57,667 nt of DNA, taken from the IMG/VR virus record IMGVR_UViG_3300047374_000251; one strand, given 5' to 3'. The notes beneath the pieces are model-generated. The model saw only the letters and a list, made by a program, of their open reading frames with translations, was not told the origin of the DNA and made no database searches. The translations under genes were made by a program, and so were the position numbers. Of the stretch, positions 4,359 through 57,667 are shown piece after piece. The stretch comes from a virus. Every line of letters begins with the position of its first letter. The first letter of the stretch is position 1.

Positions 4359-6455
4359 ATGGCATTGGTTGTAAACGACAGAGTCAAAGAGACTTCGACC
4401 ACTACTGGTACGGGTACTCTTAGTCTTGCAGGCGCAGTAACAGGTTTTGAAACATTTGTTGCCGGTATAGGTAATTCTAATACAACTTACTACTCAATTG
4501 TAAATGAGAATGGTGAGTTTGAAGTAGGCCTAGGTACAGTAACTGATGCAACACCAGATACTCTCGCAAGAACTACAGTTATTTCATCATCAAATAGTGA
4601 CTCCGCGGTAAATTTTTCTGCGGGAACTAAAGATGTTTTCTGTACTCTTCCTGCGTCTAAAGCAGTCATTAAAGATGCTAGCGGAAACATTGTAGCAAAT
4701 AATGGATCAGCATTAACAAATTTAAATGCAAGTAATCTAGCTTCAGGCACAGTTCCAAATGCAAGACTAGATGCTCAACTACAAGACGTTGCAGGATTAT
4801 CGACAACTTCTGGAAAAATTATTCAAGGTGATGGATCAAACTTTGGTCTTTCAGCCTACACATTACCTACATCAGACGGATCTTCTTCTCAAGTTTTAAC
4901 AACTGATGGATCAGGTGCGGTTACGTTTCAAACACCTACAGTCGGAGATATTACTTCTGTTGTAGCAGGTTCTGGTTTAACTGGGGGAGCAACTAGTGGA
5001 GCTGCAACTTTAAATGTTGGCGCAGGAACTGGTGTTACAGTTAACGCTGACGACATAGCTATTGGCCAAAGTGTGGCTACTTCAGCTAGTCCTACTTTTG
5101 CAGGATTAACAACCACTGCTGATATTAATTTTGGAGATAATGACAAAGCTATCTTTGGAGCAGGTTCAGATTTACAAATATATCATGATCCGTCTGAAGG
5201 AAGTATTGTTAGAGATGCTGGCTCTGGAAATTTAGTTCTTGCTGGAAACGATGTTCAAATTACTAATGGTGCAAGGAATGAAACACACATTGATTGCAAT
5301 AATAATGGTGCTGTCGAACTTTACCATGACAACTCTAAGAAATTAGAAACAACATCTGCTGGTGTACAAACAACAGGTACTGTTAATGTAAACGGAGCAT
5401 ATACACTTCCAACATCAGACGGATCAGCTAACCAAGTTTTAACAACTGATGGATCAGGCGCACTTACTTTTGAAACACCAACTACTGGAGATATAACTTC
5501 AGTTGTAGCAGGATCTGGTTTAACTGGAGGAGCAACTTCCGGTGCAGCTACTTTAAACGTTGGAGCTGGAAACTTAATTGATGTTCAAGCAGATCAAATA
5601 GATGTTGATCTTTCTGAACTTACGACTTCTACTTCAAATGGCGATGGTGATTTTTTTGCAGTAGTAGATGCATCAAATGCTCAGAAAAAATTAACTAAAG
5701 GTAATATTAATATTTCAGGTTTTAATAATGACTCTGGCTTTACTACAAATACAGGTACAGTAACTAGTGTTGGTATTACACCAGGAACTGGATTAGATGC
5801 TGGTTCAGCTGTTACAACTTCTGGTACTATTAGTGTTGATTTAGATTTATCAGAACTTACTGACATGACAGCTACAATGACTGGGTCAGATGAATTTATT
5901 GTTTTAGATTCAAGTGCAGAGAGAAGAAAAGCGGCTAGTGAAATAGGTTTATCTATTTTTAATAATGACGCTGGGTTTACTACAAACACTGGAGACATTA
6001 CTTCTGTTGTAGCAGGATCTGGATTAACAGGCGGTGCAACTAGTGGAGCTGCTACTTTAAATGTTGGAGCAGGCACAGGTATCGATGTTGCTGCAGATGC
6101 AATTTCAGTTGATGTATCAGACTTTATGTCAAACGGTTCTAACAACAGAGTTGTTACAGCTACAGGTGCAGATGGTATGAATGCAGAAGCTAATATGCAG
6201 TTTGATGGATCTACATTAACAGTAACTGGAGATATTGTTCCAGGAGCTAATGATAGTCATGACCTCGGTGCTTCAGACAATGTTTGGAGAAACTTATACA
6301 CTGGAGATTTACATTTATCTAATGAATCTAAATCAGAAGGTAATGCAGTTGATGGCACTAAAGGTAGCTGGACAATTCAAGAGGGTGCAGAAGATCTTTA
6401 TTTATTTAATAACAAATCTGGTAAAAAATATAAGTTTAAACTAGAGGAAGTTTAA
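4359..6455 (+). CDS. Tail fibre protein with internal repeats
   Basis: 698 aa, Gly/Ser/Thr-rich. It has three copies of GDITSVVAGSGLTGGATSGAATLNVGAG, and its C-terminal module is shared with 7418-8119. Confidence 0.8.
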   Translation: MALVVNDRVKETSTTTGTGTLSLAGAVTGFETFVAGIGNSNTTYYSIVNENGEFEVGLGTVTDATPDTLARTTVISSSNSDSAVNFSAGTKDVFCTLPASKAVIKDASGNIVANNGSALTNLNASNLASGTVPNARLDAQLQDVAGLSTTSGKIIQGDGSNFGLSAYTLPTSDGSSSQVLTTDGSGAVTFQTPTVGDITSVVAGSGLTGGATSGAATLNVGAGTGVTVNADDIAIGQSVATSASPTFAGLTTTADINFGDNDKAIFGAGSDLQIYHDPSEGSIVRDAGSGNLVLAGNDVQITNGARNETHIDCNNNGAVELYHDNSKKLETTSAGVQTTGTVNVNGAYTLPTSDGSANQVLTTDGSGALTFETPTTGDITSVVAGSGLTGGATSGAATLNVGAGNLIDVQADQIDVDLSELTTSTSNGDGDFFAVVDASNAQKKLTKGNINISGFNNDSGFTTNTGTVTSVGITPGTGLDAGSAVTTSGTISVDLDLSELTDMTATMTGSDEFIVLDSSAERRKAASEIGLSIFNNDAGFTTNTGDITSVVAGSGLTGGATSGAATLNVGAGTGIDVAADAISVDVSDFMSNGSNNRVVTATGADGMNAEANMQFDGSTLTVTGDIVPGANDSHDLGASDNVWRNLYTGDLHLSNESKSEGNAVDGTKGSWTIQEGAEDLYLFNNKSGKKYKFKLEEV

Positions 6456-39332: not shown

Positions 39333-39459
39333 ACAAAAATTTACTCACTTCATTCCTAGAGACAAGCCTAAAAAACGTGGGCCTCGCCAACACAAGAAAA
39401 ATTTAAATAAAAGCGAACGTCGTCAAAAAAAACAAACACGTTACAAAGGACAAGGTTAG
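39325..39459 (+). CDS. Small highly basic protein (44 aa, not in the ORF track)
   Basis: MAKQKFTHFIPRDKPKKRGPRQHKKNLNKSERRQKKQTRYKGQG. Overlaps the upstream gene by 8 nt. Confidence 0.3.
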   Translation: MAKQKFTHFIPRDKPKKRGPRQHKKNLNKSERRQKKQTRYKGQG

Positions 39460-43177: not shown

Positions 43178-43462
43178 ATGATCAAGAAAAAATCCAAATA
43201 TAAATCAGTCCTTATAAATAAAAAAAGATATTACTTTTACAAAATTACCTGGTTGGATATTTTGGGTGACGCGGGGCATGCTGATATCAATGAGTTCAAT
43301 GAGATGAAGCCTGCAGAAATGATAACTCATGCGTATATATTTTCAAAAGATAAAAAGAATCTTAAAACTTTTGCATCTTATGATAGCCACTTCGAGTCTT
43401 TTTCGGATCGTAATGTATTTCCAACAGGCTGCATAAAAAAACTAGAAAAAATTAATCTTTAG
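43178..43462 (+). CDS. Hypothetical protein
   Basis: The track ORF starts at a GTG at 43163. The first ATG is at 43178. Confidence 0.45.
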   Translation: MIKKKSKYKSVLINKKRYYFYKITWLDILGDAGHADINEFNEMKPAEMITHAYIFSKDKKNLKTFASYDSHFESFSDRNVFPTGCIKKLEKINL

Positions 43463-43931
43463 TCTCTTCAATCACTTCTGCATCAGCATCAATAATAGGT
43501 TTAAAGTTTTTTAATGCTTTTTCTAGTTCTTTGTCTAACTCTGATTCGTCAACATTATCTAAATTTTTATGTAGATGTAGATTAGTATTATTTTGAAATC
43601 CTGCAGCTTTACCTCTAGCTATTTCCATATTACCTGCAGCACTCCAGGCTTTACTCTCCCTAGCTTCATCTCTAATTTTACCTAGTTCCGCCAGGTGTTT
43701 TTCATAAGTGATGTCATATTTTTTTAATTTTTCTGCTCTGAGTTTTCCAATGTATTGAGCAACTAATGGATACAGAGATGGGTTTTGTAATTTGCTAGCG
43801 GATACATAAGCTGAGTTTGGATCGTAACCTGCTTCAATAGCACATTCAGAATCAGTTTTTCGACCTTCTTCTGTTACTATTAGATTTGCAAATTTAATTT
43901 GTTTCTCTGTAAGTCTTTTTGGAACTCCCAT
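43452..43931 (-). CDS. terS: Terminase small subunit-like HTH protein (Terminase_2-like)
   Basis: LTEKQIKFANLIV..SECAIEAGYDPNSAYVSASKLQNPSL..YI matches the N-terminal pattern of the Terminase_2 family. Confidence 0.55.
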   Translation of the reverse strand: MGVPKRLTEKQIKFANLIVTEEGRKTDSECAIEAGYDPNSAYVSASKLQNPSLYPLVAQYIGKLRAEKLKKYDITYEKHLAELGKIRDEARESKAWSAAGNMEIARGKAAGFQNNTNLHLHKNLDNVDESELDKELEKALKNFKPIIDADAEVIEETKD

Positions 43932-44225: not shown

Positions 44226-44597
44226 ATGATTAAGGGAGAGACTAAATTTTGGCATGAAATTAAGGCGTTCAATATTAAAAATAATTGCGAATTATCATTT
44301 ACACGCTTGGAAAATAGTGCTGCACACGGTACTCCTGATCTATTGGTTTACAATACTTCTGGTCACTTTTTCACTATAGAATTAAAACTAAATTTGGCTA
44401 AAAAAATTCGGTTTTCTCCACACCAAATTGGCTTCCATATCAAGCATCCGCACAACAGTTTCATCATGGCCAAGGGCCTCTGTCAGACAGACATAAAACT
44501 TTATGAAGGGTCCAAGATCCGTGATCTTGTAGCCGGTTCTGCCGAACCGTGTGCCACGGGCATGATGTCAAGCTTTAAATTTCTACAAAAGGTTTAG
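44226..44597 (+). CDS. PD-(D/E)XK nuclease, VRR-NUC-like
   Basis: AAHGTPDLLVY..GHFFTIELKLN provides the D...E-x-K signature. Confidence 0.5.
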   Translation: MIKGETKFWHEIKAFNIKNNCELSFTRLENSAAHGTPDLLVYNTSGHFFTIELKLNLAKKIRFSPHQIGFHIKHPHNSFIMAKGLCQTDIKLYEGSKIRDLVAGSAEPCATGMMSSFKFLQKV

Positions 44598-44647: not shown

Positions 44648-44689
44648 AGAGAAGAGCTTGTGGGCGGGACCCACCCTTTTTATTTTTTG
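44648..44689 (+). terminator. Copy A of the 29-nt GC stem-loop element, followed by a T-run (intrinsic terminator-like)
   Basis: AGAGAAGAGCTTGTGGGCGGGACCCACCC, then TTTTTATTTTTTG. Lies 51 nt after the stop of 44226-44597. Confidence 0.55.
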
Positions 44690-44703
44690 TTTCACGTGAA
44701 ACA
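44688..44703. promoter_or_regulatory. Perfect 16-bp palindrome TGTTTCACGTGAAACA
   Basis: Read directly. It lies between the two tandem terminator-like copies. Confidence 0.4.
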
Positions 44704-44753
44704 TGCGCCTGCGACCTGTGGCCTGTGGCCTCGGCTTGCGGACTGTGGTGCGT

Positions 44754-44787
44754 GCTTGTGGGCGGGACCCACCCTTATTTTTTATTT
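44754..44787 (+). terminator. Partial copy A' (21 nt identical to 44656-44676), followed by a T-run
   Basis: GCTTGTGGGCGGGACCCACCC, then TTATTTTTTATTT. Confidence 0.5.
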
Positions 44788-44871
44788 CTGCTTGAGGTCT
44801 TTGCAGGTAGGGAACTAGCACCTGCTACTAGCGGGCCGTTTGTATAATAGGCGCGCCCGTGACCTTGCTTG

Positions 44872-44897
44872 AGGGCTGGTGGAATACTACCAGCCCT
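44872..44897. other. Hairpin AGGGCTGGT-ggaatact-ACCAGCCCT
   Basis: 9-bp perfect stem with no flanking U-run on either strand. Lies 71 nt below the stop of the minus-strand gene 44968-45567. Confidence 0.35.
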
Positions 44898-44967
44898 CTG
44901 TTCAGTTACTGATTGAGTCTTCTCAATCCTTCTAACACTCGAGGCGTTAGCAGCCCTGAATTCTTTT

Positions 44968-45567
44968 TTAGTGTTTACCATAACTAATATTCTTAATTTT
45001 TGGGTTCCAGCATTTTCTACAATCTAAACATTTGCCGCCCTGCTTTGGCGCTGGACAGCTAGGTTTTTTTGTAACTACAGTTGATGTGTTCGGCCAGCTT
45101 TTAATACCTGCTTGATTAATCATACTTGAAGATAATCTAATCACCAGGTTCGCAGGCTTGTCTTTCAGGTATGGTTTTATCCAGGCCTCTTTGGTAGGCA
45201 TCCAATGGCGCTTAGTCGGCGTCTGTCTACAAACTTCAAAAATTTTTCGAAGGTGTTCTAGATCTTGAACATCGCCTGAGTCATGCCATCTAAATACATC
45301 CGATTTTTTAGAGTTGATCAAGGTCACCATTGCGAAGACCCATAACTTTTTTTTCAAAGCCTTCAGCCTCCTATACTGAGCATCCTGAACAACCTTGAAA
45401 ACATAGCAGCCTTTTAAAGCGTAGCAGGTACTACAGACCGAGTCAGGTATTAATCTTAACTTGCTGCCCGTGTTACACTCGGCAGCAGGTATACCAATTG
45501 CCCATCCTGGCATCTTGCCAGGCTTGCTAAGGCCGCCGACTAGATCCCATGCTTTTTTAGTATTCAT
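44968..45567 (-). CDS. Cysteine-rich protein, possibly GP88-domain-like (function unknown)
   Basis: ECNTGSK..DSVCSTCYALKGCY, WHDSGD, and C-terminal SCPAPKQGGKCLDCRKCW. GC content is higher than in neighbouring genes. Confidence 0.45.
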   Translation of the reverse strand: MNTKKAWDLVGGLSKPGKMPGWAIGIPAAECNTGSKLRLIPDSVCSTCYALKGCYVFKVVQDAQYRRLKALKKKLWVFAMVTLINSKKSDVFRWHDSGDVQDLEHLRKIFEVCRQTPTKRHWMPTKEAWIKPYLKDKPANLVIRLSSSMINQAGIKSWPNTSTVVTKKPSCPAPKQGGKCLDCRKCWNPKIKNISYGKH

Positions 45568-45731
45568 TCTTCAACCTCGTCAGCATAAGCGGTAATATAA
45601 TCGCTTAGATTCATTTTAACTTCAGTCAAGGCTTGAGCCTCGGCCTCTTGTTCGCTGTCAGCGTCAAAACTTAAATTAAAATTTTTGACCCATTTGCTGT
45701 CAACTTCTAGTGTTACTTTATATTTTCGCAT
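45564..45731 (-). CDS. Small acidic protein (55 aa, not in the ORF track)
   Basis: MRKYKVTLEVDSKW..DADSEQEAEAQAL..YADEVEE. ATGA-coupled to 44968-45567 and preceded by the GAAAGGAATACA leader. Confidence 0.45.
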   Translation of the reverse strand: MRKYKVTLEVDSKWVKNFNLSFDADSEQEAEAQALTEVKMNLSDYITAYADEVEE

Positions 45732-45753
45732 TTTGTATTCCTTTCGTTTATTT

Positions 45754-45782
45754 AATATAGGATATTATGGCATAAGATGCAA
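45754..45782 (-). promoter_or_regulatory. Sigma70-type promoter (minus strand): TTGCAT, 17-nt spacer, TATATT
   Basis: Reverse complement of 45777-45782 and of 45754-45759. ATATCCTA overlaps the -10 box. Confidence 0.5.
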
Positions 45783-45815
45783 GGCCAGCAGCTCAAAATA
45801 AATAAAATTTTTTTC

Positions 45816-45844
45816 TTGACATATCCTATAAATTCCTATATAAT
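45816..45844 (+). promoter_or_regulatory. Perfect-consensus sigma70 promoter: TTGACA, 17-nt spacer, TATAAT
   Basis: TTGACA at 45816-45821, spacer TATCCTATAAATTCCTA, TATAAT at 45839-45844. Confidence 0.65.
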
Positions 45845-45854
45845 ATTCCGCCGC

Positions 45855-45883
45855 AGAGAAGAGCATGTGGGCGGGGCCCACCC
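45855..45883 (+). repeat. Copy B of the 29-nt GC stem-loop element
   Basis: AGAGAAGAGCATGTGGGCGGGGCCCACCC. It starts about 11 nt after the -10 box of the consensus promoter. Confidence 0.9.
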
Positions 45884-45918
45884 ATATAAAAAAAATAAAA
45901 ATAAATGTTTTTTAGGGG

Positions 45919-45946
45919 TTGACTATATCCTATAATAACCTATAAG
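45919..45946 (+). promoter_or_regulatory. Sigma70-type promoter: TTGACT, 16-nt spacer, TATAAG, with ATATCCTA in the spacer
   Basis: Followed by TAACTTAAC and the GAAAGGAATACA leader (45969-45980), then the ATG at 45984. Confidence 0.5.
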
Positions 45947-45983
45947 AATATTTATAACTTAACAAATAGAAAGGAATACAGTT

Positions 45984-46580
45984 ATGCAACCATTAAGAAA
46001 AGACCACGTTGACCATTACAAAGACTTTGTAAGAGATGAGTTTAGTCTTGCGTCAAATAAAGTAGAGCGTGAAATATCACAACAGGCACAAGATAAAGTT
46101 GAAGAGGTCGGTGATAAATTTGCGACTGTAATAAATAAAAACTTGCCTACTCTAATTAAAGAAATGGCAAAAAAAGAAAAAGCGTTGAGAGATTTCCAAA
46201 GTAAAAAATCTTCTATGGAACATGATCTCAGAGTTGACGCTCAAGTAATCGCAGATAAAATCACTGAGATTTTTAATAATACAATAAAGCGGAATAAATG
46301 GGATATGAATAGAATTAGTATTGATATTCATGATGATAATGATCCTGTTGATTACATAACAAAGAAAATTAAAAAAGCTTGTTATGAAGAAGCAGAAGTC
46401 CACGCTAGAGCTCAACATAAATTATATCATGCACTAGAAAGCAAAAAGAAAAAGTGTTTGAATATACTTTATACAGGCAGTCACATTCAACCAACATTGG
46501 TTGAGTTGCAAAGAGAAATGGCAACAGCTAACATTCAATTAGATTTACCTAAATCACTGTTAGCTTTACCGAGTAAATAA
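45984..46580 (+). CDS. Hypothetical coiled-coil protein
   Basis: 198-aa K/E-rich ORF. Confidence 0.55.
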   Translation: MQPLRKDHVDHYKDFVRDEFSLASNKVEREISQQAQDKVEEVGDKFATVINKNLPTLIKEMAKKEKALRDFQSKKSSMEHDLRVDAQVIADKITEIFNNTIKRNKWDMNRISIDIHDDNDPVDYITKKIKKACYEEAEVHARAQHKLYHALESKKKKCLNILYTGSHIQPTLVELQREMATANIQLDLPKSLLALPSK

Positions 46581-46586
46581 ATAACT

Positions 46587-46617
46587 TGTGGCGCGAGATT
46601 AACACACTCGCGCCACA
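46587..46617 (+). other. 11-bp hairpin TGTGGCGCGAG-attaacaca-CTCGCGCCACA
   Basis: Starts 7 nt after the stop of 45984-46580. No U-run follows. Confidence 0.4.
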
Positions 46618-46628
46618 CTAGAAAAAAT

Positions 46629-46657
46629 AGAGAAGAGCATGTGGGCGGGGCCCACCC
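46629..46657 (+). repeat. Copy C of the 29-nt GC stem-loop element
   Basis: Identical to copy B, followed by an A-rich run. Confidence 0.9.
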
Positions 46658-46728
46658 TAAAAAAAGAAAAAAATGTGTTGCATAAAAGACACACTTTAAA
46701 AAAAATGTGGATAACTTTAATTTAGTGT

Positions 46729-46757
46729 TGGACATTATAGGATAAATAAAATAGACT
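46729..46757 (+). promoter_or_regulatory. Weaker promoter-like cassette: TGGACA, 17-nt spacer, TAGACT, with TAGGATAA
   Basis: Followed by TAACTTAAC and GAAAGGAATACA (46775-46786), then the ATG at 46787. Confidence 0.35.
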
Positions 46758-46786
46758 CTCATTATTAACTTAACGAAAGGAATACA

Positions 46787-47020
46787 ATGACTAAAACAAT
46801 TAAATTAGACTCATACTTTGGTGAAAAAGATTTCACATTGGAAGAGTTTAAAAAAAGATGGGCTGGCCCAACAAATGAAATTTGGGCTTTCTTAATTGAT
46901 CACGGTGACAAAGAGGAAAGAGATTTTGGGCAAAAACTTGCAGAAGAACTTTTTCCAAGAGTTGCTGAAAAAGCTTTTAATAAATTTTATGAAAAGCAAA
47001 ATAAAAAGGAGGAAGCGTAA
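46787..47020 (+). CDS. Hypothetical protein
   Basis: 77-aa ORF. Confidence 0.5.
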   Translation: MTKTIKLDSYFGEKDFTLEEFKKRWAGPTNEIWAFLIDHGDKEERDFGQKLAEELFPRVAEKAFNKFYEKQNKKEEA

Positions 47021-47418
47021 TGACTTATAATATGAACTTTTACAAAATCGGACATTTTGATAGAGAAGCAAAAGATTTTGGTATGCCTCACTGGGATCAA
47101 GCCGATAAAGATGCAGTAAGACAAACTGCTGAAAGTATGGGTTGGTTATTGATGTATGTTCATCAAAACGAAATCACTGAAGATAATATTGAAGAAATTA
47201 TTTTCAGAATGCAATTTGCTGACACAGTTCATGGCGAACCCTTTATGAAAAAAGGTGGCAAGGAATGTACGGTGTCCGAGGTTAGACATCAATTGAAACA
47301 ACACATTGGTTTGGAAACTAATGGTAGTGTGAGCACCAGACACAAATACATTGTCAACATAGCAAAGAACTTGGCTAATGATATTGATTACAAATTAACA
47401 GAGGAGAATAATAAATAG
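47020..47418 (+). CDS. Hypothetical protein
   Basis: 132-aa ORF, TAATG-coupled. Confidence 0.5.
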   Translation: MTYNMNFYKIGHFDREAKDFGMPHWDQADKDAVRQTAESMGWLLMYVHQNEITEDNIEEIIFRMQFADTVHGEPFMKKGGKECTVSEVRHQLKQHIGLETNGSVSTRHKYIVNIAKNLANDIDYKLTEENNK

Positions 47419-47436
47419 ACTTCGTTAAGGAAGAAT

Positions 47437-47459
47437 GGCCATGCAGTTTTTGCATGGCC
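47437..47459 (+). terminator. Hairpin GGCCATGCA-gtttt-TGCATGGCC
   Basis: 9-bp stem 19 nt after the stop codon. The U-tract is weak. Confidence 0.45.
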
Positions 47460-47497
47460 TATCCTACATTATCCTATGCACAAACTGCATAGCTCAT

Positions 47498-47526
47498 AGA
47501 GAAGAGCATGTGGGCGGGACCCACCC
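47498..47526 (+). repeat. Copy D of the 29-nt GC stem-loop element
   Basis: AGAGAAGAGCATGTGGGCGGGACCCACCC, 120 nt upstream of the terminase large subunit gene. Confidence 0.9.
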
Positions 47527-47645
47527 TAAGAGGGGACCCTAAAGGAACTATATCCAAATTCGAATTGTTTATGTTTACGCGAATACCCCTTAAAATTATA
47601 GGGGTCCCAGACCTACCCTATATAGTTTGATTTGGATAGTTAATC

Positions 47646-49154
47646 GTGTATAATAGTTTACCACCCATATTGAAATATATGCTAACTGTTGAAGATATTA
47701 ATAAAATAGAAGATCCGATTGAGCGAAGGAAGCTCAAGATACAGATTATACAACGACATCAAAGAAAAGAACTTAAGCAAGTTAAAACTAATTTTTTATC
47801 TTTTGTAAAAAGGATGTGGCCAGATTTTATAGAGGGGTCCCATCACAAAGAAATCTCAGATAAATTTAATAGATTGGCAACTGGAGATTTGACCCGTCTA
47901 ATTATAAACATGCCGCCTAGGCATACTAAATCTGAATTTGCGTCGTTCTTTCTTCCTGCTTGGATGATCGGGCAGAATCCTAAACTAAAAATAATTCAAG
48001 CAACTCACACAGCGGAGCTTGCAGTAAACTTTGGTCGTAAAGCAAAACATTTAATTGACTCAGAAGAGTATCAACAAATTTTTAAAACAAGACTCCAGGA
48101 AGATAGTAAAGCTGCAGGACGTTGGAATACATCTGATGGCGGCGAATACTTTGCAGTTGGTGTCCAAGGTGCGGTAACCGGTAGAGGTGCTGATCTACTC
48201 ATCATTGATGATCCACATTCAGAGCAAGATGTAAACTCACCTTCGGCATTTGATAATGCATGGGAGTGGTATACTAGTGGACCGAGACAACGTCTTCAAC
48301 CAGGAGGTCGTATTGTTTTGGTTATGACAAGATGGTCTACAAAAGATTTAACACAAAGATTGTTAAACGCACAAAGCAACGAGAACGCGGATCAATGGGA
48401 AGTCGTAGAGTTCCCTGCAATCTTACCTTCAGGTGAACCTGTGTGGCCAGAGTATTGGAAGTTAGAAGATTTAAATTCTGTTAAAGCATCTGCGGGTGTT
48501 GCAAAGTGGAACGCTCAGTATATGCAGAACCCAACTTCAGAAGAAGGAGCTCTCATTAAAAGGGAGTGGTGGAAAAATTGGGAATCTAAACATATGCCTC
48601 ACATCGAACACACAATTCAAAGTTATGATACAGCGTATCTTAAAAAAGAAACTGCAGACTACTCTGCTATTACTACCTGGGGAGTTTTTCGTCCTAATGA
48701 AGACTCGCCTCGTCAATTAATATTATTAGATTCTTATAAAGAACGTTTAGAGTTTCCAGAGTTACGTCGTGTTGCACTGGAACAATATAAATATTGGAAT
48801 CCTGAGACAGTCATTATTGAAGCAAAAGCATCAGGACTACCTTTGATGTATGAGTTACGTAACATGGGAATTCCTGCAATGAATTTTACACCAAGTAAAG
48901 GTCAAGATAAAGTTGCAAGAGTTAATGCAGTCTCTCCACTTTTTGAAGCCGGACAAATTTGGGCGCCTCTCGATCAAGAGTTTGCACAAGAGCTTGTTGA
49001 AGAGTGTGCAGCGTTTCCTTATGGTGATCATGACGATTTAGTTGACAGCACAACACAGGCTCTGTTAAGATACAGACAAGGCGGATTTATAGATCACCCT
49101 GAAGATTATCAAGAAGAAGACCAACCCAAAAGAAAAAAGAAATTTTACTGGTAA
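47646..49154 (+). CDS. terL: Terminase large subunit
   Basis: P-loop-like NMPPRHTKSE, Walker B LLIIDDPH, MTRWSTKDL coupling motif, and C-terminal nuclease acidic residues (SYDTAY.., DHDDLVDS). The track uses a GTG start; ATG 47679 is an alternative. Confidence 0.88.
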   Translation: MYNSLPPILKYMLTVEDINKIEDPIERRKLKIQIIQRHQRKELKQVKTNFLSFVKRMWPDFIEGSHHKEISDKFNRLATGDLTRLIINMPPRHTKSEFASFFLPAWMIGQNPKLKIIQATHTAELAVNFGRKAKHLIDSEEYQQIFKTRLQEDSKAAGRWNTSDGGEYFAVGVQGAVTGRGADLLIIDDPHSEQDVNSPSAFDNAWEWYTSGPRQRLQPGGRIVLVMTRWSTKDLTQRLLNAQSNENADQWEVVEFPAILPSGEPVWPEYWKLEDLNSVKASAGVAKWNAQYMQNPTSEEGALIKREWWKNWESKHMPHIEHTIQSYDTAYLKKETADYSAITTWGVFRPNEDSPRQLILLDSYKERLEFPELRRVALEQYKYWNPETVIIEAKASGLPLMYELRNMGIPAMNFTPSKGQDKVARVNAVSPLFEAGQIWAPLDQEFAQELVEECAAFPYGDHDDLVDSTTQALLRYRQGGFIDHPEDYQEEDQPKRKKKFYW

Positions 49155-56673: not shown

Positions 56674-57582
56674 ATGGCTATATCACGAGGACAACTAGTT
56701 AAAGAACTAGAGCCAGGTTTGAACGCACTGTTCGGCTTGGAATATAAACGTTACGAAAACCAACATGCTGAGATCTACGCGACAGAAACTTCAGACAGAG
56801 CTTTCGAAGAGGAAGTTATGTTATCTGGATTCGCTAATGCTCAAGTAAAACCTGAAGGTTCAGGTGTAGTTTTTGACAATGCTCAAGAAACTTACACTGC
56901 AAGATACACTATGGAAACTGTGGCTCTTGCCTTCGCTATTACTGAGGAAGCGGTGGAAGATAACCTGTATGACAGACTGTCAAGCAGATACACTAAAGCG
57001 TTAGCTAGAAGTATGGCAAATACTAAGCAAGTTAAAGCTGTTAATCCTTTGATTAATGGTTTTGGAGGTGGTTTCACTTCTGGAGATGGTAGCAATTTAT
57101 TTGCAACTAATCACCCAACTATTGCTGGTACAGTGTCAAACACTCTATCTACAGCAGCGGACTTAAACGAAACTTCATTAGAGCAATCTCTTATTGACAT
57201 TGCAGCGTTTACTGATGAAAGAGGTTTAAAAATTGCAGCGAAAGCAACAAAAATGATTGTTCCTTCTGCGCTACAATTCCAAGCTGAAAGACTGATGAAA
57301 TCAGAAGGCAGAGTTCAAACTGCTGATAATGATATCAACGCAGTTAGATCAATGGGAATGGTTCCTCAAGGTTACAGAGTGAACAATTTCTTAACTGATC
57401 CAAACGCGTTTTTCCTTATCACTGATGTTCCAAACGGAATGAAACATTTCGTTAGAACACCAATCAAAACAGCTATGGAAGGTGACTTCGACACTGGAAA
57501 CTTAAGATTTAAAGCTAGAGAAAGATACCAATTTGGTGTGTCTGACTTTAGAGGAATCTTCGGTTCTCCTGGAGTAAGTTAA
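56674..57582 (+). CDS. Major capsid protein (HK97 fold, Mu gpT-like)
   Basis: 302 aa, AGGAG RBS, follows the scaffold, hairpin downstream. The sequence pattern resembles Mu-like major head subunits from memory. Confidence 0.8.
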   Translation: MAISRGQLVKELEPGLNALFGLEYKRYENQHAEIYATETSDRAFEEEVMLSGFANAQVKPEGSGVVFDNAQETYTARYTMETVALAFAITEEAVEDNLYDRLSSRYTKALARSMANTKQVKAVNPLINGFGGGFTSGDGSNLFATNHPTIAGTVSNTLSTAADLNETSLEQSLIDIAAFTDERGLKIAAKATKMIVPSALQFQAERLMKSEGRVQTADNDINAVRSMGMVPQGYRVNNFLTDPNAFFLITDVPNGMKHFVRTPIKTAMEGDFDTGNLRFKARERYQFGVSDFRGIFGSPGVS

Positions 57583-57593
57583 TAGATAATTTT

Positions 57594-57616
57594 GAGGCGG
57601 GACACAATCCCGCCTC
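57594..57616 (+). terminator. Hairpin after the capsid gene (same sequence as 54-76)
   Basis: GAGGCGGGA-cacaa-TCCCGCCTC. Confidence 0.55.
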
Positions 57617-57667
57617 ATTTACAAAATAAGAAAGAAAAACTCATGAAAAAACTTCTCATTAATATTT

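Follow-up and report, generated by a model that had tools for sequence, protein, structure and literature searches.

A conserved 29-nt GC-rich element at cassette borders in the putative early region of an HTVC023P-type Pelagibacter podovirus

Results

A 29-nt element borders gene cassettes upstream of terL

In HTVC023P-type pelagiphages, an abundant group of ocean viruses whose hosts are SAR11 bacteria, single-orientation copies of a 29-nt GC-rich element delimit the small gene cassettes that lie between a VRR-NUC-like gene and terL. These cassettes are gained, lost and swapped with breakpoints within or at the edge of the element, leaving hybrid single copies behind. Judged from sequence comparison, it is about an even call that the 29-mer serves as conserved GC-rich core in an intergenic punctuation and recombination module, similar to the PeSLs of T4-type phages, in an early region that would be transcribed by the host RNA polymerase.

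The stretch of DNA analyzed here (the window, 57,667 nt) is a complete, circularly permuted genome of this phage type. As described in the initial annotation it is AT-rich, with a G+C content of 0.28-0.41. The 29-mer AGAGAAGAGCWTGTGGGCGGGRCCCACCC occurs exactly four times (copies A to D, Table 1), always on the plus strand, and a 21-nt copy (A'), identical to positions 44656-44676, contains the 15-nt core (44758-44772). Thus, the four full copies and one partial copy first reported were all recovered, where chance predicts none: the expected number of matches in shuffled sequences was zero, even with three mismatches permitted. A minus-strand stretch with two mismatches to the core (39377-39391) sits in coding-like sequence and was not accepted as a copy. 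The element is laid out as a conserved linear arm followed by a 5-bp stem with a 5-nt loop. The annotated GTGGG/CCCAC hairpin is possible, but it is small, and the fold energies of A, A' and B in their context were no different from those of shuffled sequences (z +0.6 to -1.2).

All copies in the window lie within 44.6-47.5 kb, a hypervariable region, where they bracket small transcription units as had been proposed. By synteny with HTVC027P, this is the predicted early region. In HTVC027P, gp35, the first gene in the syntenic block, is classed as Early with high expression, the table row directly preceding terL has the same early pattern, and terL is Late; the phage is reported to lack an RNA polymerase gene and to depend on the host enzyme (PMC12753301). 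The annotated distance of about 120 nt from copy D to terL agrees with the 119 nt between the end of D and a GTG at 47646. However, the ATG at 47679, 152 nt from the end of D, is more likely the terL start. The promoter-like sequence ahead of this ATG is preceded by the motifs GGGGACCC (47532) and GGGGTCCC (47601). At the other end of the region, copy A' adjoins the end of a minus-strand operon (44775-45731), and the syntenic slots of HTVC027P hold GCTTGNN arrays equivalent to the heptamer array leading into A'.

Table 1. Copies of the 29-nt element and neighboring features
Feature	Position	Strand	Remarks
PD-(D/E)XK-like gene	44226-44597	+	precedes copy A
Copy A	44648-44676	+	29-nt element; T-run 44677-44688 next; convergent junction
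Perfect 14-bp palindrome GTTTCACGTGAAAC	44689-44702		between A and A'; same site in relatives
7-nt unit array (CCTGTGG / CTTGCGG / ACTGTGG ...)	44708-44753	+	leads into A'
Copy A'	44754-44774	+	21-nt core; heptamer-type left arm; T-run next
Consensus sigma70-type promoter TTGACA-17-TATAAT	45816-45844	+
Copy B	45855-45883	+	hybrid ('solo') copy; flanks match separate L135 stretches
A/T-rich tract with promoter-like TTGACT-16-TATAAG (45919-45946)	45884-45946	+	serves ORF 45984-46580
Cassette-specific 11-bp GC-rich hairpin	46587-46617	+	3' of ORF 45984-46580 stop
Copy C	46629-46657	+	A-run next
Perfect DnaA-box 9-mer TTATCCACA	46706-46714	-	48 nt past copy C; sole one in genome
Promoter-like TGGACA-17-TAGACT with spacer motif ATTATAGGATA	46729-46757	+	serves ORFs 46787-47020, 47020-47418
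9-bp hairpin GGCCATGCA-N5-TGCATGGCC	47437-47459	+	past stop of last cassette ORF
Copy D	47498-47526	+	final copy ahead of terL
Promoter-like TTGATT-16-TATAAT	47627-47654	+	ahead of terL (ATG 47679)

Cassettes are exchanged at the element

The copies sit at the boundaries of small gene cassettes, and the slots between them hold approximately 290 ORF families (198 singletons) in highly variable order. In 925 pairs of occurrences one flank was at least 80% identical and the other at most 45%, both flanks being shared in 202 pairs; with control anchors placed 120-400 nt away, nearly all pairs shared both flanks. Alignment ends obtained with blastn clustered at 45850 and 46650, and breakpoints of indels and replacements between relatives fell in the element or at its edge. 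Copy B illustrates the outcome. Its upstream flank matches positions 669-814 of the relative L135 and its downstream flank positions 1659-1810, and an 815-nt cassette that lies between two direct copies in L135 is missing from the window at B. Presence or absence of a cassette between two direct copies also distinguishes the window from L111 and, in two clean cases, L070 from L051 and L065; between L118 and L136 it is accompanied by a hybrid element. Several genomes carry a single hybrid copy where relatives have two copies and a cassette.

The history of copy B bears on its annotation. A perfect TTGACA-17-TATAAT promoter had been noted ahead of it and was confirmed, matching at 12 of 12 positions and ending 10 nt upstream of B. 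In L135 and L138 the equivalent promoter precedes a cassette of two elements and a non-coding region, which is missing from the window. The suggestion that B forms the 5' end of a transcript consequently does not hold as a matter of design, since a cassette deletion fused the orphan promoter to the next element.

The core is conserved in sequence and fixed in orientation

A database search, as the initial annotation had advised for the 29-mer, recovered the same core TGTGGGCGGG-N-CCCACCC in at least 119 IMG/VR contigs, with 2 to 10 copies per contig. None of the 166 loci (520 occurrences) showed mixed orientation. In TerL-anchored loci the element was always on the terL strand and upstream of terL, and every copy in the relatives was located between the VRR-NUC-like gene and terL. 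Orientation did not follow local gene direction; certain cassette families are found either way round, the element being never inverted. Of the 18 core positions 17 are invariant, among them the 'loop' CGGG and the trailing CC; the central base alone, which may be 1-2 nt, is free to vary. The core remains constant although neighboring proteins drop to about 50% identity, and its conservation spans phages with TerL just 72% identical. Among 89 distinct relatives copy D is almost totally conserved, whereas its flanks are 30-60% conserved and rich in indels. Variants tied to particular sites (W at position 11, N at position 22) are kept from genome to genome, indicating that the copies are not homogenized by gene conversion. 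Tandem arrays exist with periods of 35-47 nt. A sister clade carries a different version, GCTYG-N8-GGGCCCACCC-N-CCC, in which the hairpin is not conserved, and the two versions are mutually exclusive. Among 185,579 species-representative genomes the pattern turned up only in two phage contigs that had been mis-binned and, by chance, in one coding sequence, and the idea of a CRISPR-repeat mimic (solitary unit) was rejected on this ground. In the relatives, 21 of 33 DnaA boxes lie at most 150 nt downstream of an element.

The fixed loop and trailing CC, the fully conserved core at site D, the uniform orientation, the tandem arrays, the exclusive clade-specific versions, the absence from host-type genomes and the associated DnaA boxes all speak for a site that is bound in a sequence-specific manner, as duplex DNA or as an extruded or single-stranded hairpin, by a candidate conserved phage or host protein. 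Action of such a site would depend on genome polarity, and it might serve in early promoter control, in replication initiation near AT-rich or DnaA-box tracts, as a packaging or injection signal, or in targeted nicking as a trigger of cassette exchange; recombination at the copies would in that case be a side effect, or else be brought about by the binding factor. We regard this explanation as possible rather than probable. A candidate binder was not found, and neither GP88 nor the ORFs of 55, 75 and 198 aa showed a DNA-binding signature. Pfam did not uphold the labels RHH and HNH originally given to neighbors: it assigned 44968-45567 to GP88 (PF17338) and had no hit to the 55-aa ORF. Furthermore, the distance to the promoter is variable, 4-10 dispersed copies would be unusual as an origin or pac site, and dimeric DNA-binding proteins rarely tolerate a change in spacer from 1 to 2 nt.

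A bolder idea, and a rather improbable one, is that dedicated machinery, specific to each clade, recognizes the element or its sister version in order to move or regulate the early cassettes. Equally doubtful is its corollary that a candidate phage protein reads the 29-mer, folded or as a duplex, from a single strand; candidate readers are the always-adjacent PD-(D/E)XK-like nuclease and the ubiquitous, Cys-rich GP88. Dedicated machinery would account for the uniform orientation, the constancy of loop and flanks, the freedom of the central base and the mutual exclusion of the two versions. If true, it would be a phage counterpart of integron attC/integrase logic or of promoter/polymerase co-evolution.

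Transcriptional context differs between copies

The T-runs after A and A' and the A-runs after B and C are present as annotated. Copies A and A' pass an intrinsic terminator scan, in line with their predicted terminator-like character (hairpin plus T-run), and B, C and D do not. At B and C an AT-rich tract comes next, then a sigma70-type promoter, and the ATG stands behind a Shine-Dalgarno sequence; D follows this order only loosely. This module of element, A-tract, promoter and leader stands before different ORFs (the leader GAAAGGAATAC follows the TTGACT-16-TATAAG promoter ahead of ORF 45984-46580) and is absent at A, A' and tandem copies. A strict leader motif was detected downstream of 82 of 467 unique copies, and the element-to-promoter distance was not constant. 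Across the family a T-rich tail follows 73 of 478 copies (15%), with enrichment at convergent junctions (39 of 90). Where a plus-strand gene comes next, the tail is T-rich in 13 and A-rich in 143 of 266 cases. Further copies lie between divergent promoters (81-129 cases) or between minus-strand genes (39-47 cases), and in plus-plus contexts the element lies 49-82 nt past the upstream stop codon.

These contexts bear on a role at the RNA level, as a nut/put-like antitermination signal or as a hairpin for processing or stability that sets the ends of early mRNAs. RNase III sites define the ends of T7 early RNA. In the antitermination form, the linear AGAGAAGAGC and the 15-nt hairpin would act as boxA and boxB. 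The conserved arm, the 5-bp stem with its 5-nt loop and the tight spacing past upstream stops would fit, and two copies of L138 and L135 fall within a leader, downstream of a consensus promoter and ahead of a structured non-coding region, and must be transcribed. Two rare stem variants are wobble-compatible. However, the covariation check proposed for the stem was negative, with no double compensatory change among approximately 137 left-arm-anchored copies, and a recurrent TGC variant breaks a pair. The element has no match in Rfam, folds no better than shuffled sequences, occurs in many copies at divergent promoters or in minus-strand units, and lacks a conserved hairpin in the sister version; 4-10 nut sites per early region would be without precedent. 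An RNA-level element is hence unlikely, and the earlier suggestion of a put-like RNA that modifies RNA polymerase was not supported, given the lack of covariation, the divergent and minus-strand copies and a hairpin that is not conserved in the sister clade.

It is less likely still that the copies are ordinary rho-independent terminators, alike through recent duplication. The hairpin and T-run at A and A' and the enrichment of T-tails at convergent junctions agree with such a role, but 85% of the copies have no T-rich tail, some occupy probably untranscribed or antisense positions, and it is sequence, not structure, that is conserved, even across the TerL divergence noted above. Each plus-strand cassette has its own, stronger 3' hairpin just ahead of the element, making a terminator role unnecessary there; the hairpin at 46587-46617 has in relatives a changed stem sequence with pairing kept. 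Being transcribed, the leader copies of L138 and L135 cannot be efficient terminators at these sites.

Hairpin promoters of phage N4 have a 5-7 bp stem and a 3-nt loop and occur in several co-oriented copies at the early genome end. With G at the central position the element would fold into a stem of 6 bp and a loop of 3 nt; the copies share one orientation and stay within the early region, AT-rich flanks would favor extrusion, and a 1464-aa ORF in the virion region is without annotation. Nevertheless, DNA-hairpin promoters for an unrecognized virion-borne RNA polymerase are very improbable and the N4-type reading was not supported: no polymerase match was found among the large ORFs, each cassette has its own sigma70-type promoter, HTVC027P reportedly relies on the host enzyme, transcription from A and A' would run antisense through the minus-strand operon, and copies occur at ORF 3' ends and in tandem arrays. 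Just as improbable is a miniature mobile element of a selfish kind, akin to MITEs, REPs or mitochondrial GC clusters, that inserts itself into AT-rich spacers: the palindromic GC-rich unit is scattered in AT-rich intergenic DNA in 2 to 10 copies, but none of 491 junctions showed empty/filled site polymorphism, terminal inverted repeats and target duplications are absent, and the element is limited to one 3-kb region in strictly one orientation and missing from bacterial genomes.

Discussion

We favor a PeSL-like module of punctuation and recombination. Cassette exchange would proceed through recombination, homologous or of the annealing type, from one 29-nt direct repeat to another; the window phage encodes an exonuclease. 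At the convergent junction the small hairpin and T-tail of A and A' would halt rightward transcription. At B, C and D the A-tailed element may form the upstream edge of portable promoter modules, ordered as element, A-tract, sometimes a DnaA box, sigma70 promoter, conserved leader and ATG, and it probably insulates the promoter against upstream read-through. Several observations sit uneasily with this proposal. T-tails are confined to a minority of copies, the stronger 3' hairpin of each plus-strand cassette leaves no need for a second terminator there, the hairpin of the element is thermodynamically unremarkable, without compensatory changes and not conserved in the sister version, and a plus-sense RNA role is doubtful for copies at divergent promoters or minus-strand genes. 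A need for homology alone leaves one free central base next to 17 fixed ones unexplained, and the element never flips, though some cassette families do. Constancy of the core (loop and trailing CC), fixed orientation and clade-specific versions imply an extra constraint, which could be a sequence-specific partner or recombination compatibility inside an exchange community.

Among known systems, integron attC and other single-strand hairpin sites are likewise imperfect palindromes on one strand that separate variable cassettes. However, attC keeps structure and not sequence, whereas the element is near-invariant in sequence, its cassettes bring their own promoters, and an integrase or HUH enzyme was not seen. 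With N4 promoters it shares small GC hairpins with a 3-nt loop in multiple co-oriented copies of the early region, but a virion polymerase was not found, there are sigma70 promoters and many positions are unfit for promoters. Lambda nut (boxA and boxB) and HK022 put offer a short linear arm, a 15-nt hairpin and a 5-nt loop in an early region; in contrast, the element is many-copied, in part probably untranscribed, without covariation and without the two-stem architecture of put, and an N-like protein was not identified. Copies A and A' resemble rho-independent terminators in their GC-rich hairpin and T-run at a convergent junction, whereas most copies lack the T-run and keep sequence rather than pairing in a stem of 5-6 bp.

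In PeSLs of T4-type phages a stem-loop of polyG and polyC is combined with an AT-rich tract, a sigma70 promoter and a Shine-Dalgarno sequence, and these modules mediate indels between related phages (Arbiol et al. 2010, PMC2839356; Comeau et al. 2014, PMC4122927). The comparison with PeSLs made in the initial annotation holds well, given the modules at B and C and the gain and loss of cassettes exactly between direct copies. Both systems have repeated intergenic modules in a hyperplastic, ORFan-rich early region, the succession of G-run/C-run stem-loop, AT-rich tract, sigma70-type promoter, Shine-Dalgarno sequence and start codon (here at B and C, and loosely at D), and breakpoints of indels and replacements located in the repeats. 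The resemblance is one of analogy, the phage being an HTVC023P-type podovirus of SAR11, in lineage and host unrelated to T4-like myoviruses. Unlike PeSLs, the element is far more conserved in sequence: a near-invariant 29-nt GC core is kept, with loop and flanks, and not the promoter. It also has one orientation regardless of cassette direction, some promoterless copies (A, A'), some tandem arrays, and a separate, exclusive version in the sister clade. The element is best read as a PeSL-like variant, built on a principle already known from PeSLs.

Distribution of the element in the window and its relatives

A pattern scan of the window found four exact matches to AGAGAAGAGCWTGTGGGCGGGRCCCACCC, the 29-nt GC-rich element (copies A to D), all on the plus strand, together with the partial copy A'. 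In shuffled window sequence no AGAGAAGAGCWTGTGGGCGGGRCCCACCC match is expected, even with three mismatches permitted. The contexts described in the initial annotation, T-runs after copies A and A', A-runs after B and C, a consensus promoter ahead of B and terL downstream of D, were all confirmed. The identity of bases 1-127 with bases 57541-57667 shows the window to be a complete phage genome of ~57,540 bp, circularly permuted or circularly assembled. Its gene order agrees with that of HTVC023P-type podoviruses, and its TerL shares 71% identity with the protein of Pelagibacter phage HTVC027P and 69% with its counterpart in phage 023Pt_psg01. The window contains neither tRNA genes nor an Rfam match; at the element copies Rfam gave nothing at gathering and at permissive thresholds. 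The HTVC023P-type group is reported to carry no RNA polymerase gene and to rely on the host enzyme (PMC12753301). A 1464-aa ORF, considered as a hidden RNA polymerase, had no family or PDB match and, with a low prior, was rejected.

Features of the window and of related loci (L001, HTVC027P, MN698241; other L-numbers, loci of relatives)
Feature	Position	Strand	Remark
Copy A	44648-44676	+
Copy A'	44754-44774	+	repeat of 44656-44676 (21 nt)
Copy B	45855-45883	+
Copy C	46629-46657	+
Copy D	47498-47526	+
terS	43452-43931	-
PD-(D/E)XK-like ORF	44226-44597	+
Palindrome, perfect, GTTTCACGTGAAAC	44689-44702		between copies A and A'
Short heptamer array	44708-44753		leads into copy A'
Operon	44775-45731	-	includes GP88/PF17338 protein
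GP88 (PF17338) protein	44968-45567	-
Three small ORFs, then terL		small ORFs +	around the copies, after the operon
Cassette-specific hairpins	46587-46617; 47437-47459
ATCCTATAA / TTATAGGAT	42442; 44616; 45763; 45823; 45927; 46743	both	in promoter spacers
DnaA box TTATCCACA	46706-46714	-	48 nt past copy C
GGGGACCC / GGGGTCCC motifs	47532-47539; 47601-47608; 47834-47841		flank terL promoter region
7-nt unit arrays, relatives	L001 3978-4114, 4868-4925, 5190-5225; L322 5400-5680
Flavobacterium-1 RNA (RF02976)	L001 5232-5352	-
CTGATCCCAGGTC...GACCAGGGATCAG units	L138 ~4640-4830; L052 6155-6500; L001 ~5530-5600; L002 ~6295-6360		three in tandem in L052

The element had been described as conserved, and database searches agreed: relatives carry its core, and the 18-mer TGTGGGCGGGRCCCACCC occurs in at least 119 IMG/VR contigs, with up to 10 copies per contig. 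With the central base left free, 520 occurrences were obtained in 166 loci, many of them short contigs and some duplicates of one contig; copies on both strands were present in none. A second set of loci was fetched via TerL alone, making its choice independent of the motif. Here, an intergenic CCCACCC upstream of terL was nearly always part of a full element on the terL strand, a pattern that persisted down to ~72% TerL identity. TerS, GP88 and the nuclease-like ORF encoded on these contigs were just 47-65% identical to their window counterparts. Across 89 distinct sequences of the pre-terL site, the element formed an island of 90-100% conservation within indel-rich flanks of 30-60%.

Variation of the core was confined to the central base (A, G, T or C, occasionally two bases), the "loop" CGGG and trailing CC being fixed; in the position tables this invariance is partly forced by the search pattern, and the independent evidence comes from the TerL-anchored loci and the left-arm-anchored copies. 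About 130 of the ~137 left-arm-anchored copies were canonical and the remainder had single changes. The left arm itself takes two forms, AGAGAAGAGC(A/T/G)TGT and the heptamer-type GTGGTKAGTGCTTGT.

Nucleotide searches of GenBank phages with the region and with the element gave no match. The pattern was also absent from bacteria and archaea (185,579 species-representative genomes), save for two phage contigs placed in wrong bins and a single chance match in coding sequence, and the idea of a host repeat or CRISPR mimic was rejected on this ground. The match in locus L199, in GC-rich coding DNA, was likewise due to chance. IMG/VR contigs (e.g. L011, L027, L037, L067, L020, L014) often stop within tens of bases of an element, consistent with assembly-graph breaks at a repeat whose flanks differ among co-occurring strains.

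Conservation of sequence rather than fold

The GTGGG/CCCAC hairpin is small, and the fold energies of copies A, A' and B in their contexts were not better than those of shuffles; the strong structures near the copies are cassette-specific hairpins. Nor did the stem show covariation: no compensatory double change was found among the ~137 left-arm-anchored copies, and a recurrent TGC-for-TGT change breaks one pair. In the same syntenic slots, phage 023Pt_psg01 carries five co-oriented copies of a sister-clade version (type 2), GCTYG-N8-GGGCCCACCC-N-CCC, without a consistent hairpin. Type 2 was present in at least 120 IMG/VR contigs, with up to 7 copies per contig; among the contigs listed its orientation was uniform in all but one, and no phage contig carried both type 2 and the window's version (type 1). 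Thus, given the weak fold and a sister version lacking a consistent hairpin, the conserved feature is the sequence, in versions that differ by clade, and not the fold. A G-quadruplex was also considered: each strand of type 1 contains only two G-runs, and three or four are present in some type-2 copies.

Different repeats are found in the cultured relatives, namely GCTTGNN arrays in HTVC027P, AT-rich 33/58-nt repeats in HTVC023P and CCGTGNN arrays in DSL-LC04; the HTVC027P arrays occupy slots equivalent to those of the element. Arrays of 7-nt units (GCTTGNN, CCTGTGG or CCGTGNN) recur in the phage group. In HTVC027P each directly follows, on the downstream side, a transcription unit running leftward. 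In that direction the arrays read C-rich and G-poor, and would suit a Rho-loading site.

Recombination at the element

Flanks of the occurrences were compared pairwise and scored as shared (at least 80% identity over 40 nt) or not shared (45% or less). While 202 pairs shared both flanks, 925 shared one flank only; control anchors 120-400 nt to each side were almost exclusively of the "both shared" class. Ends of alignments between the window and its relatives cluster at 45850 and 46650. The upstream flank of copy B aligns with positions 669-814 of locus L135, stopping where an L135 element starts, and the downstream flank with 1659-1810, beginning directly after another L135 element. Hence, an 815-nt cassette, which sits between two direct copies in L135, L138, L142 and L111, is missing from the window; its deletion accounts for the consensus promoter 10 nt ahead of copy B. 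Clean parallel presence and absence of a cassette was seen in L070 versus L051 and L065. A further case, L118 versus L136, includes a hybrid element with variant bases from both parents.

Some 290 ORF families fill the cassette slots, and their order varies widely; 198 families are singletons. The element is never flipped, although certain families are found in either orientation. Precise presence or absence of the element alone was not found at 491 tested junctions.

Genes and candidate non-coding RNAs of the cassettes

Pfam and PHROGs recognised only TerS, GP88 and, weakly, the PD-(D/E)XK-like ORF among the neighbouring genes, lending no confirmation to the labels "RHH" and "HNH" given to neighbours earlier; PDB sequence searches with the neighbouring proteins gave no match. 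In every case the PD-(D/E)XK-like ORF is found directly upstream of the first element. Its signature (GTPDLLVY ... FFTIELK) was read by eye, and its sole, weak database match is a PHROG labelled "DNA helicase". GP88 is the commonest cassette gene (57 loci, leftward in all), with 4580 homologues in metagenomes and invariant cysteine clusters (C31, C45, C48, C54; C171, C180, C183, C186). Its AlphaFold model was mediocre (pLDDT 63) and gave no significant PDB fold match. The homologue in HTVC027P, gp33, is strongly expressed (PMC12753301).

Within the cassette region of HTVC027P, a strong, full-length Rfam match to Flavobacterium-1 RNA reached 90 bits, the gathering score being 59; it is missing from the record's annotation. 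Element-bounded cassettes of relatives also contain long, hairpin-like units whose ends are conserved (CTGATCCCAGGTC ... GACCAGGGATCAG) and whose interior of 60-180 nt is variable; a terminator-like hairpin often follows. These units, which have no Rfam match and are absent from the window, have the appearance of a non-coding RNA family.

Genes and promoters around the copies

Counted with simple ORF calls, which are crude in the relatives, copies occurred in every intergenic configuration: between tandem plus-strand genes (116-137 cases), divergent genes (81-129), convergent genes (55-90) and minus-strand genes (39-47). The tail was T-rich in 39 of 90 convergent junctions and in 15% only of all copies. 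Where a plus-strand gene came next, it was T-rich in 13 and A-rich in 143 of 266 cases. There the element stands at the upstream edge of a module that is portable. Behind it come an A-tract, in many cases a small hairpin together with a perfect DnaA box, a promoter (TTGACN-N16-18-TATAAN with spacer motif ATCCTATAA), the leader AACGAAAGGAATAC and ATG. One and the same module was found ahead of many different ORFs.

In the window, ATCCTATAA / TTATAGGAT in spacers of sigma70-type promoters are restricted to 42.4-46.8 kb; they may represent an operator or else an extended signature of early-class promoters. The perfect DnaA box is the sole one in the genome. Relatives (e.g. L014, L039, L077, L118) have 33 distinct perfect boxes, of which 21 are located no more than 150 nt downstream of an element and just upstream of an early promoter; distances of ~30, 40, 48 and 95 nt are preferred. 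This arrangement suggests recruitment of host DnaA to the early promoter modules, its titration by them, or an origin at this place. The palindrome is kept at the A/A' site in relatives and in some is also found near terL. At the terL promoter flank other clades carry the motif ATAGAGGTACCAG in place of GGGGACCC / GGGGTCCC. GGGACCC/GGGTCCC occurs nine times in the genome against an expectation, by our estimate, of ~1; three of the nine are inside the element.

The syntenic pre-terL block of HTVC027P starts with gp35, which is classed as "Early" and very highly expressed; the row directly before terL in the expression table has the same early pattern, and terL and terS are "Late" (PMC12753301). 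Consequently, a strong stop is needed ahead of terL. The window ORF 45984-46580 has no detectable homology to gp35 and shows only weak similarity to the 023Pt_psg01 ORF; the "early" label in the window is therefore one of position alone.

Discussion

We read the element as a putative punctuation and recombination element akin to the promoter-early stem-loop (PeSL) cassettes of T4-type myoviruses. Comparison of related sequences shows it to act as a boundary and site of recombination, and from its contexts we infer a transcriptional role: copies A and A', at a convergent junction, would be used in a terminator-like manner, and the other copies would form the upstream edge of promoter modules.

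Neither a hairpin nor a simple need for homology explains the invariance, single orientation, tandem arrays and exclusive versions. The main rival reading, that a sequence-specific partner reads the element, addresses such features and is possible, although we consider it unlikely. An integron-like dedicated system built on the element is more doubtful still. The put-like RNA raised in the initial annotation is weak, with neither compensatory changes nor a consistent hairpin in the sister version, as are nut-like, N4-like and plain-terminator readings and that of a MITE, which was rejected since no empty sites were found. Read on the minus strand (GCTCTTCTCT), the element resembles boxA (GCTCTTTA); the likeness was put down to chance, as it is missing from the alternative left arm GTGGTTAGTGC and leftward transcripts are few.

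HTVC023P-type pelagiphages are among the most abundant ocean viruses, and to our knowledge no function is known for any of their early genes. A universal 29-nt border tag offers a handle to find and catalogue this early-gene pool in metagenomes. The element would also account for assembly breaks of these phages in the early region and, as a PeSL-like element, points to a concrete route by which co-infecting phages may exchange host-takeover genes. Its sequence constancy, single orientation and two exclusive versions could reveal a new sequence-specific factor.

PeSLs consist of a stem-loop of a G-run and a C-run, an AT-rich tract, a sigma70 promoter and a Shine-Dalgarno sequence; they are repeated in the hyperplastic early region and used as crossover points (PMC2839356, PMC4122927). 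The likeness to these cassettes had been pointed out in the initial annotation, and both the anatomy of the element and the comparative evidence match it, which is why we favour the PeSL-like reading. The PeSL idea would thus reach past T4-like myoviruses, suggesting that early cassettes bounded by repeats represent a general solution. Beyond what is described for PeSLs, the element of these pelagiphages has an invariant loop and flanks beside a free central base, a strict single orientation, tandem arrays and exclusive versions in sister clades.
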